64,000 nucleotides of DNA, taken from positions 1-64,000 of the IMG/VR virus record IMGVR_UViG_3300013126_001527. One strand, 5' to 3'. The notes below the pieces were generated by a model that saw only the letters and a program-made list of their open reading frames with translations, was not told where the DNA came from and did not search any database. Shown in pieces: positions 38,201 to 44,560 of the stretch. Origin of the DNA: a virus. The translations under genes were made by a program, and so were the position numbers. The first letter of the stretch is position 1; each line of letters starts with the position of its first letter.

Positions 38201-39037
38201 ATGCAAATTACAGCAGAACATATTCAATCATTATTTCCAAAATACAAATACCCAGCAGACCTAGCAGAAGCACTAACAGAATCATTTGACAAGTATGATA
38301 TTAATACTGTTAATCGTGCCGCTGGTTTCTTGGCACAGTGCGGACATGAAAGTGCAGGGTTTACAGTATTGCAAGAAAACCTAAACTATTCAGCCGACGG
38401 GTTGAACAAAATCTTTAAGAAGTATTTTCCAACAGTGGCAGATGCACAACCATATGCTCGTAATCCAGAAAAGATTGCTAACAAGGTATATGGTGGGCGT
38501 ATGGGCAATGGTCCAGAATCTAGCGGTGATGGTTACAAATTCCGTGGCCGTGGCGCTATCCAATTAACTGGTCGTGACAACTATACACAGTTTGCCAAGG
38601 CAGTAGGCCTAACCGTTGACGAAGCAGTAGCAGACTTAGAAACACTTGACGGTGCTATTGAATCGGCATGTTGGTTCTGGCAGAAAAACGGACTTAACGC
38701 TATCTGTGATGCAGACGACGTTGTTAAAATGACCAAACGTATCAATGGTGGAACCATCGGCTTAGAAGATCGCAAGAAACACTACGAACATGCTAAACAT
38801 GTATTAGGTGGCAGTCATGTAGAAGAATCACACGGTGTTAGTGTAACCACATACGAAACAGTACGTGTTGGCTCTAAAGGTGAAACAGTCAAAGCTGTGC
38901 AGGCTGCACTGGGGCTAACAGCAGATGGCGCATTTGGGCATGGCACAGAAAAAGCAGTTAAAGCATGGCAAACTAAAAATGGCCTTACAGCAGACGGCGT
39001 AATGGGTCCTAAGAGCCTACAAAAACTATTAGGATAA
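38201..39037 (+). CDS. Endolysin, glycoside hydrolase family 19 with C-terminal peptidoglycan-binding domain
   Basis: FLAQCGHES, ENLNYS, FRGRGAIQLTGRDNY, TKRINGG; GLTADG repeats. Confidence 0.9.
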   Translation: MQITAEHIQSLFPKYKYPADLAEALTESFDKYDINTVNRAAGFLAQCGHESAGFTVLQENLNYSADGLNKIFKKYFPTVADAQPYARNPEKIANKVYGGRMGNGPESSGDGYKFRGRGAIQLTGRDNYTQFAKAVGLTVDEAVADLETLDGAIESACWFWQKNGLNAICDADDVVKMTKRINGGTIGLEDRKKHYEHAKHVLGGSHVEESHGVSVTTYETVRVGSKGETVKAVQAALGLTADGAFGHGTEKAVKAWQTKNGLTADGVMGPKSLQKLLG

Positions 39038-39040
39038 TCT

Positions 39041-39496
39041 ATGTTCTTACTACATTTTTTACCGGATAGTTTCTTACAAACAGTAATCAACATTGTACTT
39101 TTCTCAGGGTTAGGGTTAACTGTAGTGGGTTTTTTCCTAGCAGGATGGATTCCAGGTGCACGCAATTATAAGTCACTTATTCAAATCTTAGGTGTTACAC
39201 TATTAGCCGCTGGTATCTACTGGAAGGGTGGCTACGGTGTTGAAATGGAATGGCGTGGCCGAGTAGCTGAACTTGAGGCTAAACTAAAAACAGCAGAAGA
39301 AAAATCACAACAGGTCAATACCGTGATTGAAACCAAAGTAGTTACACAGGTTAAACATATCAAAGATACACAGGTTAAGATACAAAAACAAATTGTCGAA
39401 CGAGAAAAGATTATCAACGGTGAATGTGAAGTTCCAGCAGAGGCTATTGAGTTGCTAAACAAAGCTGCTGAACGTCCAACAGGAGAAAACAAATGA
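39041..39496 (+). CDS. Inner-membrane spanin (Rz-like)
   Basis: N-terminal TM helices, coiled coil, C-terminal Cys; follows endolysin. Confidence 0.7.
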   Translation: MFLLHFLPDSFLQTVINIVLFSGLGLTVVGFFLAGWIPGARNYKSLIQILGVTLLAAGIYWKGGYGVEMEWRGRVAELEAKLKTAEEKSQQVNTVIETKVVTQVKHIKDTQVKIQKQIVEREKIINGECEVPAEAIELLNKAAERPTGENK

Positions 39497-39888
39497 GTAA
39501 TTCAATTAACAAATATATCAAACTATTCGAAGAAGAATTAGCAGGACTGCGTGCTGTTGGCGTATCAGAGCCAGAGGATTCAGAAGAGTCTTCATTGCCC
39601 GAAGTCAACATTTCATTCCAGCATGATACGGATAATAGCCCTAAAAAATCCGTAATGGTCAACGCAGGTGGAATATACACCGGTGATGCCAACGATCTGC
39701 GTGATATACTACACGACATGAACGTTCCAATCCCCGACGAAGATGCTCAACCAAACGATTCGGGTGTTTGGGTCAGCGTAGATGAAAACGGTAAGAGAAT
39801 CACAGCAATGGCAGATAATGAAAAAGGTGACGAACTGTTAGCTATGTTAAAGAACGCCGGCTTATATAAAGGTGGGCCAGATGCGTAG
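39493..39888 (+). CDS. Acidic hypothetical protein inserted in lysis cassette
   Basis: N-terminal KYIKLFEE, C-terminal LAMLKNAGL. Confidence 0.55.
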   Translation: MSNSINKYIKLFEEELAGLRAVGVSEPEDSEESSLPEVNISFQHDTDNSPKKSVMVNAGGIYTGDANDLRDILHDMNVPIPDEDAQPNDSGVWVSVDENGKRITAMADNEKGDELLAMLKNAGLYKGGPDA

Positions 39889-40138
39889 TTTATTACTGGT
39901 CTTGCTACTTTCAGGTTGTTCAACGCTAGTTCCTGTTAAGGCTAAGTTTCCGGAACTACCCAAAGAGTTGGCTATTGAATGTCCAGACCTAAAACAACTA
40001 CCACCAGATACTAAAAAGCTAAGTGATGTAGTCAGCAACGTAAGTGAAAACTACGGTACCTACTATGAATGCCAAGCACGTAAAGAAGCATGGGTAGAGT
40101 GGTACAAGGCACAGAAACAAATCTACGAGAGCAACTAA
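39881..40138 (+). CDS. Outer-membrane spanin lipoprotein (Rz1-like)
   Basis: Lipobox LLSGC, Pro-rich segment, two further Cys. Confidence 0.75.
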   Translation: MRSLLLVLLLSGCSTLVPVKAKFPELPKELAIECPDLKQLPPDTKKLSDVVSNVSENYGTYYECQARKEAWVEWYKAQKQIYESN

Positions 40139-40545
40139 TGAAAAAATTTATTCTTATAGCAGTAGCGACGTTGGCATTAAATGGCTGTGCCATTGTTGAT
40201 ATCTACAAGCAAGCACGGTGGGATAACAATGAATACAGTCTAGTAAATGAAGTACAAACATCAGCTGCATTAGGTATTGATGTTTGTGCTTATCCTAAAG
40301 ATGTTGTTTACTACGTAGATCATATCTATAGTAAAAGTTTAGAGTTTAGAAACTATACTGCAGAAATTGATCGTAACCAAGAAGCAAACAAAATGGCTGA
40401 AAGTTTATTAGCCATTACTAAAGGTTTAAAAGAACGCTACCACAGCGGCGATGAGCCTACACAAAAATACTGTGAACTAAAAATGACAACTATACAAACC
40501 AGTTCCAGTACTATCAAGCGAGCACTAGGAGCTAAACCAAGATGA
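40138..40545 (+). CDS. Lipoprotein
   Basis: MKK + hydrophobic + LNGC lipobox. Confidence 0.7.
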   Translation: MKKFILIAVATLALNGCAIVDIYKQARWDNNEYSLVNEVQTSAALGIDVCAYPKDVVYYVDHIYSKSLEFRNYTAEIDRNQEANKMAESLLAITKGLKERYHSGDEPTQKYCELKMTTIQTSSSTIKRALGAKPR

Positions 40546-40748
40546 CAACCAGAAACGATGTAGTAGCAGAAGCACAAACATTAGAAAACGAATTTAAAGC
40601 CGGGCGTCTCTCGGCAAGTGAATTAAAAGAATTATTAGAAGATTTAAAGCACAGCAAAGCTATTGTAGCTGCCGCAGGCGACTTAGAAGTTAAAGCTCAG
40701 CTGTTTGAGTTAATTGACGGCATCATCTGTGCTGCTGGCGCTATCTAA
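40542..40748 (+). CDS. Small hypothetical protein
   Basis: ATGA overlap, AGGAG RBS. Confidence 0.6.
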   Translation: MTTRNDVVAEAQTLENEFKAGRLSASELKELLEDLKHSKAIVAAAGDLEVKAQLFELIDGIICAAGAI

Positions 40749-40784
40749 TAAATATTATTATAATAATCAACAAGGAGTAAGACA

Positions 40785-41075
40785 ATGGCAAAAACAGCAG
40801 AAGAACGCACATCAGATTGGATGACCACCAAGTGGCGTCCGTTAATGGCAATCACATACATGGCAACAATTTGGTTTGATTTTATTCTTGGACCAGTTGT
40901 TTTTAACGTATTACAATATTGGAATCCGGGTCAGGCGATTACTAGTTGGACAGCACTAACACTACAAGGTGGTGGTTTATATCACATCTCTATGGGTGCT
41001 ATTCTAGGTATTGCGGCTTGGACACGTGGCAAGGAAAAAGTAGCTGAATTAGAAAACGGTGGCGCGGGAAAATAG
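40785..41075 (+). CDS. Holin (GTA 3TM-holin-like), short form
   Basis: KWRPLMA, TLQGGGLYHISMGAILG..AWTR..EK; own late promoter 40748-40754 and AAGGAG RBS; in lysis cassette. Confidence 0.75.
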   Translation: MAKTAEERTSDWMTTKWRPLMAITYMATIWFDFILGPVVFNVLQYWNPGQAITSWTALTLQGGGLYHISMGAILGIAAWTRGKEKVAELENGGAGK

Positions 41076-41317
41076 CAGGGTACGAAACAGCCCCTGAGCA
41101 AAATGTTTCAACAGAACCGCAATGGATTGTTACAGATAGCAGCCCAGCGGACAATGTGTCAGTGACTGCACCTGTTGAAGCTGCTGAATCAGAGGTTGAA
41201 GTTCCTGAGGTAGCTGAAACACAAGAATTGTATGACGCACCTGAGGTAGCTGAAACTCCTCAACAGCCCAAAATAGCAGAAGATCCAAATCGTCCAAAAA
41301 GACGTAAAAAATCTTAA
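41066..41317 (+). other. Putative -1 frameshift site and 81-codon C-terminal holin extension
   Basis: Slippery heptamer G GGA AAA (41066-41072) right before TAG; -1 frame open to TAA 41315-41317. Confidence 0.6.
41204..41256 (+). repeat. 17-bp direct repeat CCTGAGGTAGCTGAAAC x2
   Basis: 41204-41220 and 41240-41256; encodes PEVAET twice in the -1 frame. Confidence 0.85.
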
Positions 41318-41341: not shown

Positions 41342-41374
41342 AAAAGGGTAAGCATTGACGCTTACCCTTTTTTA
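41342..41374 (+). terminator. Rho-independent terminator with -35 box in its loop
   Basis: AAAAGGGTAAGC-attgac-GCTTACCCTTTT plus T-run. Confidence 0.85.
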
Positions 41375-41392: not shown

Positions 41393-42235
41393 ATGGCAAA
41401 TGCGTATGAAACATTGGGTGTGCCTAAAGGGGCATCCGAAGAAGAAATTAAAAAGGCTTACCGCAGACTAGCGGCTAAGCATCATCCCGATCGCGGTGGA
41501 GATACTGCTAAGTTCCAAGAGATACAGGGTGCTTATGAAACTCTTACAGATCCACAAAAACGTGCGGCTCATGACAATCCGGGTTTTAATCATGGCTCTG
41601 GCGGATTTGAGTTTCACTTTGGTTCTGGTATGGATCCTAATGATATCTTTGGTCAATTTTTTAATCAACAACAAGGATTTAATCCGTTTCACCAACAACG
41701 CCAGCAACAACAGCGTAGAAATAAAGATCTACGCATAAACATCAACATCTCTTTAAAAAGCACATTAAATTCTCAAACTAAAACAGTTAGTGTACAAACC
41801 ACCAAAGGTGACAGATTTACTGTAGATGTTCAGATTCCTCGAGGTGTAACTAACGGAACTACTATTAAGTATTCTCGTATGGGGGACAACTTTTTTGAAT
41901 CATTGACACGCGGCGACTTATATGTTATAATCAACATACAAACTGATGGTCGATTTGAAATCTATGGGCACAATGTTGTTACTAACTTAACTATTAACAG
42001 TGTTGAGGCAATGTTAGGCACAGAAAAAGAAATACAAGGCGTAGAAGATAATACATTTTTAGTTAAAATACCGCCAGGAACACAGTCGGGTTCAAAATTT
42101 GGTCTTCAAGGTCAAGGATTGTATGACCCTAGGGGCGTAATGCGTGGGGATTTAATTGTTACACTTACAATTAATACTCTTATTCCAACCGAGGAACAAA
42201 TTATCAAATTGAGAGAAATTTGGCCCAATCTATAA
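41393..42235 (+). CDS. dnaJ: DnaJ-class chaperone (type II/CbpA-like, no Zn finger)
   Basis: J domain with HPD, G/F-rich linker, GDLYV/GDLIV C-terminal domains. Confidence 0.9.
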
Positions 42236-42262: not shown

Positions 42263-44560
42263 ATGATTAACAATCCAATAATTGATGCTATTATTGACCA
42301 TGCTACTAATTTTGCTAAGGAAAACAAACATAGTTATGTTACACTTGAGCATCTTTTGTATGCTCTAGTCAACAGCGAAGATTTTGGAACTTTATTGGAC
42401 GATTTTGGAGTTGATGTATCAGGGTTAGAAGAAGATATTCATGAATATGTTATTAAACAAACTCATTTAGTTGATGGGTTTAACCAAGAAGTAGCCCCAA
42501 AACGTACACACAGTTTAGAACGTGTATTCAATCGTGCGTTTACTCAGGTGCTGTTCACAGCACGAGAACGAATGGAACCAATTGATTTATTCTTAAGTAT
42601 TACACAAGAAACTAACAGTCATGCTGCATATTTCTTAATCAAATGGGGAGCGACTCGTAAACAGATAGTTGAGTTCTATACAAAACTTGTAGGACAAACA
42701 GCAAACTCAGAGCGTAAAGAAAAGTCTAAAAAACCAGATGCTATTGATCGCATTTTAGATGAACATTGTACTAATTTAAACAAACAGGTGGCAGAAGGTA
42801 AGATTGATCCTGTAATTGGTCGTGAATATGAGTTAGAAGAAATAGCACAGGTACTAGCACGTAGACACAAATCAAATGTGTTAATGATAGGTGATCCTGG
42901 TGTAGGTAAAACTGCAATCGCCGAAGGATTAGCATATAAGATTGTTAACAATCAAGTTCCTGCGTACCTAAACGATTATATCGTATATAATTTGGAAATT
43001 GGTAGTTTATTGGCCGGTAGCAAATACCGCGGTGAGTTTGAAGAAAAACTCAAAGACGTATTATATGCCCTCAATCAAAAGGGCAAAACAATTTTGTTTA
43101 TCGACGAAGCACACCAAATGCATGGTGCTGGTGCAGGAAGTTCTAGTTCTGTTGATTTTGCTAACATGATCAAACCAGCACTGAGTCGAGGTAATATCAA
43201 AGTTATTGCCAGCACAACCTTTGAAGAATATACTAAATCTTTTGAAAAAGATCGTGCATTGATGCGTAGATTCTATAAATTATCAATCGATGAACCTAGT
43301 CCGGCTGTGGCAAAAGAAATCTTGTTTGGGCTGCGTGGGCATTTTGAAGAGTTTCATGGTGGTGTAATAAGCGACGATGCCATTGAATCTGCTGTTGATT
43401 TAAGTGTTCGATATCAGACTGATCGTAGACTTCCGGACAAAGCCATCGATCTTATTGACATGAGTTGTGCTCGTTTGAAGATCAAGTTTGACGAGTGGGT
43501 TGTGGATAAGGAAGAAATTGTTGAGACTATTAGCAAAGCTACTAAGATCCCAATGGAGAATCTTGACAACAAAGAGTCTACCAAAACACTAACTTCATTG
43601 GATGCTAGCGTTAAAGATCGTCTATTCGGGCAAGACTCGGCAGTAGATCAAGTTTTAGAAAAAATCTATATTGCTAAAGCGGGATTAAAATCTCCAACTA
43701 AACCTGTAGGTAGTTTCTTATTTTTAGGTCCAACAGGTACTGGTAAAACAGAACTATGTAAGTTACTAAGTGAAAACCTAAGTATGAAACTAATTCGCTT
43801 TGATATGAGTGAATACCAAGAGAAACACAGTGTAGCTAAACTTATTGGTGCACCTCCGGGATATGTGGGTTACGAAGACGGTAATCTAGGTGGCGGTTTA
43901 TTAATCAGCGAAGTTGAACGCAACCCACACTCAATTATCTTGTTAGATGAGATTGAGAAGGCCCACCCAGATGTAAGTAATATTCTATTGAGTATCATGG
44001 ACGAAGGCATGGTTACCAGTTCAAATGGTAAGAAAGCAGATTGCCGGCATGCTATTGTTATTATGACATCAAATTTGGGTGCTGCCGATAATGAACGTAA
44101 TAATATTGGATTTGGACGAAGCTTATCTAAAGACGGGCAAGATGATGATGCTGTTAAGAAATTCTTTAAACCAGAGTTCCGCAATCGGTTAGATGCAGTG
44201 ATTAAATTTAATAAACTTGATCAGATGTCAATGAAGAAAATTGTTGTTAAATTTATCAACGAACTTAACGATCTATTGGGAGAACGTCATGTTAAAATTA
44301 ATGCAACTGAATCTTTAGTAGATTATCTAGTAGAGGTTGGATTTGATTCTGCAATGGGTGCGAGACCGTTGAATCGAAAGATCAATGAATTAATTAAAGT
44401 CCCCTTAAGTAAAAAGATTCTTTTTGAAAATGTAGAACCGGGTAGCACTGTAACTGTAGATTATTTAGATAGTAATATTGTGTTTACAGTTAGCTCTCCA
44501 ACTGTTAATCTATTAGAAAATAAAACAGTTGACGAACATGGTTACATTGTAGTAGAATAA
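42263..44560 (+). CDS. clpA: ClpA-like AAA+ unfoldase
   Basis: Clp N-domain (HSYVTLEHLL), GDPGVGKT and GPTGTGKT Walker A, GAPPGYVGY, IGF loop; no ClpB middle domain; TATAAATA at 42231. Confidence 0.9.
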   Translation: MINNPIIDAIIDHATNFAKENKHSYVTLEHLLYALVNSEDFGTLLDDFGVDVSGLEEDIHEYVIKQTHLVDGFNQEVAPKRTHSLERVFNRAFTQVLFTARERMEPIDLFLSITQETNSHAAYFLIKWGATRKQIVEFYTKLVGQTANSERKEKSKKPDAIDRILDEHCTNLNKQVAEGKIDPVIGREYELEEIAQVLARRHKSNVLMIGDPGVGKTAIAEGLAYKIVNNQVPAYLNDYIVYNLEIGSLLAGSKYRGEFEEKLKDVLYALNQKGKTILFIDEAHQMHGAGAGSSSSVDFANMIKPALSRGNIKVIASTTFEEYTKSFEKDRALMRRFYKLSIDEPSPAVAKEILFGLRGHFEEFHGGVISDDAIESAVDLSVRYQTDRRLPDKAIDLIDMSCARLKIKFDEWVVDKEEIVETISKATKIPMENLDNKESTKTLTSLDASVKDRLFGQDSAVDQVLEKIYIAKAGLKSPTKPVGSFLFLGPTGTGKTELCKLLSENLSMKLIRFDMSEYQEKHSVAKLIGAPPGYVGYEDGNLGGGLLISEVERNPHSIILLDEIEKAHPDVSNILLSIMDEGMVTSSNGKKADCRHAIVIMTSNLGAADNERNNIGFGRSLSKDGQDDDAVKKFFKPEFRNRLDAVIKFNKLDQMSMKKIVVKFINELNDLLGERHVKINATESLVDYLVEVGFDSAMGARPLNRKINELIKVPLSKKILFENVEPGSTVTVDYLDSNIVFTVSSPTVNLLENKTVDEHGYIVVE

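Follow-up and report, generated by a model that had tools for sequence, protein, structure and literature searches.

A holin-like gene of uncultured giant phages with a probable programmed -1 ribosomal frameshift near its stop codon

Does the last gene of a phage lysis cassette specify one membrane protein or two? The question arises from a stretch of DNA, called the window below, that makes up the initial 64 kb of an IMG/VR viral contig of 90.9 kb. Its source is considered to be a giant phage because CheckV puts the completeness of the 90.9-kb contig at only 26%. Almost all genes of the window lie on the + strand and its G+C content is about 40%. On that strand, an ORF extending from an ATG at 40785 to a TAG at 41073-41075 encodes a holin-like membrane protein of 96 residues. 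The 3' end of the ORF reads GCG GGA AAA TAG. The heptamer directly preceding the stop, G GGA AAA (41066-41072, + strand; Gly-Lys), lies in X XXY YYZ register with the holin frame and could serve as a -1 shift site. From 41072 onwards, the -1 frame can be read through 81 codons before it meets a TAA at 41315-41317.

This + strand extension occupies an otherwise untranslated stretch of about 240 nt, since an intrinsic terminator on the same strand, consisting of a 12-pair stem followed by a T run (41342-41371), closes the transcript shortly 3' of it. The tail that it encodes contains PEVAET twice, each time specified by one copy of a 17-bp repeat (41204-41220 and 41240-41256, + strand); the copies are 36 nt apart and therefore in frame. 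Its C-terminal motif, DPNRPKRRKKS (41282-41314, + strand), conforms to a pattern found at the extreme end of the proteins of the family, D-P-x-R-P-x-R-R-x-K. The -1 frame is closed 8 codons 5' of the heptamer and contains no canonical start before a GTG at 41156, 28 codons into the extension. A preliminary description of the locus had reported the heptamer adjoining the stop, the open frame of 81 codons, its reach up to the terminator, the in-frame 17-bp repeat and the lack of an ATG or an obvious ribosome-binding site proper to the extension, and all of these are confirmed.

The lysis cassette and its last gene

The 0-frame ORF is preceded by a + strand Shine-Dalgarno sequence, AAGGAG (40772-40777), read from the sequence 7 nt 5' of the ATG. 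About 30 nt 5' of the start codon lies AATAAATAT (40747-40755, + strand), a weak T4-late-promoter-like motif that rests on a pattern match only. The cassette comprises, in this order, genes for a GH19 endolysin with a peptidoglycan-binding domain (38201-39037), an i-spanin-like, or at least spanin-like, membrane protein (39041-39496), an Rz1/LysC-like o-spanin lipoprotein (39872-40138) and a second lipoprotein with a lipobox-type signal (40090-40545), an ORF of 68 residues and, last, the holin-like gene. Synteny comparison shows this order to be conserved among relatives. The o-spanin ORF overlaps the start of the second lipoprotein ORF, and this pair is retained in relatives. Directly 3' of the holin terminator are a DnaJ gene, with a J domain and a C-terminal domain (41393-42235), and then a gene for a ClpA/B-type double AAA+ ATPase (42263-44560); the presence of the two downstream of the holin-like gene is also conserved.

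The 96-residue protein is probably the holin of the cassette, because it has weak matches to holin families and a conserved position after endolysin and spanin genes; its lesion-forming activity is inferred. The match to phrog_3427, a holin family, has an E value of 5.8e-6. That to PF11351 (GTA_holin_3TM) is weak (E 3.3e-4; 21.6 bits, under the cut-off of 24.8) and aligns only positions 57-96 of the 123 in the profile. PF11351 is matched by all 15 aligned relatives tested, with a best E value of 1.2e-6. The similarity to the two families covers the first hydrophobic helix and the flanking WRP motif. The protein has a strong hydrophobic segment at about residues 19-45 and is charged beyond its last helix; a small membrane protein with a charged C-terminal end is what is seen with holins. 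Like the members of PF11351 and phrog_3427, it is small, has a similar first helix and is encoded in a lysis cassette, together with an endolysin and spanins as expected of a holin. For the PF11351 family, the literature searched reports no frameshift.

A dual-start arrangement of the lambda S type is not met here: there is a single N-terminal start with a Shine-Dalgarno sequence, and the next Met is codon 13. Met13 (40821-40823) precedes the first hydrophobic helix within the motif D-W-M-T-x-K-W-R-P and is nearly invariant in the family. It is not treated as a second start since no ribosome-binding site precedes the codon.

That the frameshift is real and the protein is nevertheless a different late-region membrane protein rather than a holin, for example an antiholin, a regulator of lysis or a factor associated with the membrane or the virion, is unlikely and yet deserves to be kept in mind. 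The sub-threshold Pfam score leaves room for it, as do the other membrane ORFs of the cassette (39041-39496 and 40090-40545). On the other hand, the cassette has no further evident candidate for a holin, and the window protein and its relatives match holin families as described above. The place of the gene after endolysin and spanin genes is also fixed, since it lies directly 3' of the o-spanin gene in the relatives L015 and L019 and directly 3' of the endolysin gene in L045.

Cultured phages gave no match in a DNA search with the region. A protein search of cultured phages retrieved only homologues of 30-34% identity, in Phosso, Atu_ph07 and the PA5oct group, which have no usable frameshift layout and lie outside lysis cassettes. 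Two of them speak for a function other than that of a holin. The homologue in Sinorhizobium phage Phosso (139323-139847), a one-frame hypothetical protein of 174 residues, is encoded away from lysis genes, next to RyR-domain and ligase genes. The homologue in Pseudomonas phage PA5oct (212216-212542) is annotated as a virion structural protein after its detection in virions by mass spectrometry (ESI-MS/MS). For the holin identity, nothing is gained from the distant homologues of cultured giant phages.

In three other relatives (L021, L022 and L027) the holin-like gene encodes 128-130 residues, with a different tail that ends in RYAE. None of the lysis neighbours seen in the window lies within 3 kb of it, and it overlaps an ORF of 436-469 codons by TAATG.

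Slip site and -1 frame

Three scans of sequence collections provided about 200 loci, in which a script located the gene and classed the junctions. The comparison set consists of 50 distinct junctions of the frameshift type, i.e. with a short 0-frame ORF, from independent metagenome assemblies; the synonymous divergence among them is near 0.9. All 50 carry NCG GGA AAR (GCG in 31, TCG in 16, CCG in 2 and ACG in 1). The residue before the Gly is thus variable (Ala, Ser, Pro or Thr) and the third base of its codon is G in every junction. In the long ORFs of this phage, NCG codons account for 5.5-14.5% of their families and GGA for 20% of the Gly codons. Judged from the alignment, the slip site is conserved beyond the protein requirement, with rare codons fixed and four different residues allowed before the Gly. 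The site also exceeds what chance would give: of the four copies of GGGAAAR on the + strand of the 64-kb window, this one alone stands in register with a gene.

The 0-frame stop follows the heptamer immediately in 39 of the 50 junctions, after one codon in 2 and after three codons in 9. Since it lies one or three codons further on in 11 of 50, the stop need not adjoin the heptamer. The -1 frame is open in 49 of the 50, and over 62-93 codons in the 46 relatives for which the sequence is complete; in these 46 it is closed 3-13 codons 5' of the site. Changes in tail length among relatives amount to whole codons. Read in the -1 frame, the extension has a median pairwise dN/dS of 0.47, versus 0.83 and 1.6 for the same alignment in the other two frames; the -1 frame is under purifying selection. 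For the membrane domain the value is 0.13.

Additional evidence comes from relatives in which no shift is needed to read the tail. Seven distinct relatives (L010, L023, L056, L070, L077, L103 and L106) encode a single-frame protein of 159-194 residues and do not have the heptamer of the window. The alignment of their tails with the -1 extensions holds from the first residues past the junction, and the two have in common the blocks G-[FY], T/A-P-E/V and P-Q-W as well as the C-terminal D-P-x-R-P-x-R-R-x-K. In BLASTP, the window extension matches the one-frame 187-aa protein of L010 with an E value of 2e-10, an alignment that covers both the junction block and the C-terminal motif, and the extension of L053 matches L103 with an E value of 6e-28. 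By these comparisons, the -1 frame is a real coding sequence colinear with the in-frame tails of relatives.

Could the downstream frame be a separate small gene, translated from its own start or by ribosomes that reinitiate past the holin stop? Coupling of stop and restart is frequent in phages, and the GTG at 41156 is in frame. However, all 46 complete relatives are devoid of ATG, GTG and TTG within 15 codons of the junction. Their first -1-frame start is found 15-88 codons in, at positions that are not conserved, and four of them have none at all. The most conserved block of the tail, G-[FY]..TAPE..PQW, abuts the junction and precedes those starts, and the one-frame relatives carry this block as part of the holin. 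Independent initiation would also leave the frozen heptamer unexplained, and we regard a separate gene as very improbable. The preliminary description had inferred that frameshifting yields isoforms of 96 and 177 residues. This inference gains support from the conservation in homologues, all 50 of which keep both heptamer and stop, and from the in-frame tails; protein data are lacking.

Downstream RNA and one-frame relatives

The 50 junctions align without gaps over 50 columns and the distance between heptamer and downstream structure does not vary. A short CAGGG...CCCTG stem after the stop had been proposed from the window alone. This stem, helix S1, is present (41076-41080 with 41092-41096, + strand), but it constitutes only half of the likely stimulator, and the other half is better supported. 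The latter, helix S2, pairs GAAAC at 41084-41088 with GTTTC at 41105-41109 on the + strand.

S2 corresponds to alignment columns 25-29 and 46-50, where 98% of the cells are paired. Three of its five pairs change on both sides (in 12, 13 and 10 sequences), and neither this covariation nor the pairing is reached in any of 500 shuffles. When the partner arm is slid by 1-3 columns as a control, pairing falls to 28-69%. RNAalifold predicts S2 unaided. Among nine arm combinations, seven keep the pairing: GAAAC/GTTTC, GGAAC/GTTCC, GGGAC/GTTCC, GAAGA/TCTTC, GGAGA/TCTCC and GAGGG/CCTTC fully, and GAGGA/CCTTC with one mismatch. The compensatory changes alter the encoded residues on both arms.

S1 behaves differently. 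Its GGG/CCC core (columns 19-21 with 32-35) is invariant in 50 of 50 junctions and includes two third positions of the -1 frame, columns 21 and 33, that never vary. Invariance at synonymous positions points to a constraint at the nucleotide level. Since S1 never varies it offers no covariation, and a pseudoknot rather than an S2 hairpin alone is therefore not proven. The 5' arm of S2 lies inside the S1 loop, so that the two helices together would form an H-type pseudoknot. It is likely that such a pseudoknot begins 5 nt 3' of the heptamer, its topology being inferred. A spacer of 5 nt is at the short end of the usual range. Rfam revealed no known element at the slip site and gave only sub-threshold matches, on the terminator. 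An upstream Shine-Dalgarno-like stimulator, GGTG before the heptamer, was considered and dropped, as it is absent in lineages with ATTGAAGC or ATCGAAGC.

A real shift need not be made by the ribosome. Some bacterial genes and insertion sequences owe their two-frame products to transcriptional slippage, in which RNA polymerase edits the transcript, and short runs of G and A do occur at the site. Known sites of this kind need about eight or more identical bases, whereas the runs here are only G3 and A3-A4, with A3 in the variants that end in G. Moreover, a heptamer in exact X XXY YYZ register and a structured RNA that begins 5 nt after it are in keeping with ribosomal slippage, and slippage by the polymerase has very little to recommend it.

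If the ribosome slips at these junctions, some relatives appear to use the same device in the opposite sense. L010 (3001-3561), L015 (3001-3540) and L019 (3001-3540) have an in-register G GGT TTT at the equivalent spot, followed at once by a -1 TAA. A 5-nt spacer, GGGG..CCCC and a perfect 5-bp pairing between loop and downstream sequence come after this heptamer. These one-frame relatives would yield the long form unless the ribosome slips, in which case the short form would result. The reversed polarity suggests that selection acts on making both forms.

The remaining one-frame relatives of the set (L023, L056, L070, L077, L103 and L106) have no canonical heptamer. They have YCT TTT AGY, with the -1 reading TTT TAG, 6 nt 5' of the conserved GGG, and retain both helices. 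YCT TTT AGY could be a single-tRNA slip site or nothing. Because the helices are kept there without a canonical heptamer, the structure may predate the frameshift or serve another purpose; as far as these alignments go, it is not exclusive to the layout of the window. In L179, a more distant one-frame relative, C CCA AAG stands in register and a -1 stop comes one codon after it; no GGGG..CCCC structure is found 3' of this heptamer.

A tree of the N-terminal membrane domain (258 columns, midpoint-rooted) places one-frame forms with other tails at the base and the frameshift forms in a derived group, with a few one-frame forms nested among them. Its well-supported branches require at least two changes of state. 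However, 33 of 80 branches are unresolved, and the tree is too short and too poorly resolved for the number of frameshift origins or the ancestral state to be read.

The basal position of one-frame forms in this poorly resolved tree could be taken to mean that an ancestral frameshift mutation truncated a long holin and that its old tail, no longer translated, is now decaying. The only other observation in favour of such a remnant is L098 (1767-1844), the sole frameshift-type relative with a closed -1 frame, which ends after 4 codons. With one extra G and one C fewer in its helix region, L098 gives the impression of a degenerate copy or of an error in assembly. A dead tail is scarcely tenable in view of a frame that is open in 49 of 50 diverged lineages, with length changes of whole codons, a dN/dS of 0.47 and a C-terminal motif that is retained, of a heptamer kept at synonymous sites and of compensatory changes in the downstream helix.

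Finally, an indel in sequencing or assembly, masking one continuous ORF of 177 codons like those of the single-long-ORF relatives, can practically be dismissed, as the same layout and heptamer recur in the 50 distinct sequences from independent assemblies despite their divergence, and as replaced segments, and not one base, distinguish the junctions of the one-frame relatives. Taken together, the open frame, the selection on it, the absence of starts and the homology to in-frame tails rule out assembly error, a gene of its own and a decaying remnant alike.

Proposed mechanism and known systems

We conclude that a programmed -1 ribosomal frameshift probably operates at the 3' end of the holin-like gene, and put the probability of this reading at roughly 0.85 in the absence of protein, ribosome-profiling or read-level data. 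Very probably, to judge from its sequence, the gene makes both the 96-residue and the 177-residue forms. The majority of ribosomes would read GGA AAA and terminate at the TAG, releasing the 96-residue membrane protein. A fraction would move back by one base on G GGA AAA, tRNA-Gly re-pairing with GGG and tRNA-Lys with AAA; this slip is probably assisted by the RNA pseudoknot, which would pause the ribosome from its position 5 nt downstream. The slipped ribosomes would then translate 81 further codons, giving a protein of 177 residues that has the same membrane domain followed by a presumably disordered acidic tail with a basic end.

The predicted short form has a mass of 10.6 kDa and a pI of 8.1, and the long form (residues 1-96 plus 81) a mass of 19.5 kDa and a pI of 4.7. 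In the tail, acidic residues (17) outnumber basic ones (7), and Pro, Ala, Val, Glu, Gln, Thr and Ser together make up about 73% of the sequence. When the one-frame protein of L010 is modelled with AF2, helices are seen at residues 12-46, 48-59 and 64-90 and no secondary structure after residue 91; by this model the tail of the long form would be disordered. It must be noted that the mean pLDDT of the model is a moderate 63 and that it was not used for fold searches for this reason. The tail is probably cytoplasmic, since charge is present at both ends of the protein and absent from the loop that joins the hydrophobic segments, a topology that is itself inferred.

The proposed frameshift can be compared with several known systems. 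In lambda, the 0 frame of G/GT gives a short product and the -1 frame a C-terminally extended one, an arrangement conserved across diverged phages. Presumably this lambda site works without a downstream structure, as it is usually described, in contrast to the covarying structure of the window. Like the window gene, lambda G/GT has a Gly-Lys heptamer (G GGA AAG) near the 3' end of the upstream ORF. However, it encodes a tail chaperone, not a membrane lysis protein, and its extension is a domain that binds the tape measure protein, not a disordered tail. The rule for frameshifting in tail genes has been described (PMC3091744).

The tau/gamma site of E. coli dnaX, A AAA AAG plus a stem-loop, resembles that of the window in combining a heptamer, a short spacer and a stable structure. 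L010, L015 and L019 are closer to dnaX gamma, in that a slip would lead to a stop and hence to a shorter product. The lineage of the window has the opposite polarity and a different heptamer, and no conserved equivalent of the upstream Shine-Dalgarno-like stimulator of dnaX was seen.

As a textbook matter, a holin and its inhibitor come from one gene by means of two start codons. Like S105/S107 of lambda and S68/S71 of phage 21, the two forms proposed here would be membrane proteins made from one lysis gene, with a shared transmembrane domain and a charged end that differs. By inference from these pairs, the window gene likely follows the same two-protein logic. However, the holin-antiholin pairs of lambda and phage 21 differ by a few N-terminal residues owing to their two starts, whereas the difference here would be a C-terminal tail of 81 residues added by recoding. 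Moreover, antagonism between the two forms, unlike that within holin-antiholin pairs, has not been shown.

The lysis gene of MS2 provides a precedent for a lysis protein whose output depends on a change of ribosome frame (PMC10885494). In MS2, rare shifts are followed by termination and by a restart at a lysis gene of its own; a trans-frame fusion, as proposed for the window, is not made, and no slippery heptamer cassette is involved. A literature search for holin and frameshift retrieved tail-chaperone, transposase and other frameshifts, none of them inside the gene of a holin. A genome announcement refers to predicted frameshifts in genes that lie near holins (PMC9671017). A two-form holin made by frameshifting was thus not found in the literature searched, while the kind of mechanism is itself known.

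Lysis timing sets the burst size and the fitness of a phage. A large clade of uncultured giant phages appears to use frameshifting to obtain two C-terminal variants of a lysis membrane protein, with a recoding signal as well conserved as the classic tail-chaperone frameshift and a default product that appears reversed in some relatives. Programmed frameshifting would thereby be extended to a new class of genes. Relatives predicted to make the short form only, the long form only or both offer a natural matched set for testing the control of holin triggering by the tail. On the practical side, gene callers give a 96-residue protein followed by an empty gap of 240 nt.

What the tail does can only be conjectured. 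It is inferred that the tail-less and tailed forms are both needed in a set ratio, and that the tailed form alters when or how the holin triggers or how the lesion assembles, by analogy with charged holin ends and dual-start pairs. A more specific hypothesis, which we rate as doubtful, holds that heptamer, spacer and pseudoknot act as a ratio-setting device whose polarity can be flipped, and that the tail is a cytoplasmic handle, serving as a Clp-type degron or docking site that times lysis. The unfoldase might be supplied by the phage itself, in the form of the DnaJ and ClpA/B-like proteins encoded downstream, and regulated removal of the tailed form would then set the moment of lysis. As a lead only, it may be added that the R-R-K-K at the extreme C-terminus resembles the tag RRKKAI by which MuA is recognized by ClpX (PMC8138137, Table 1).
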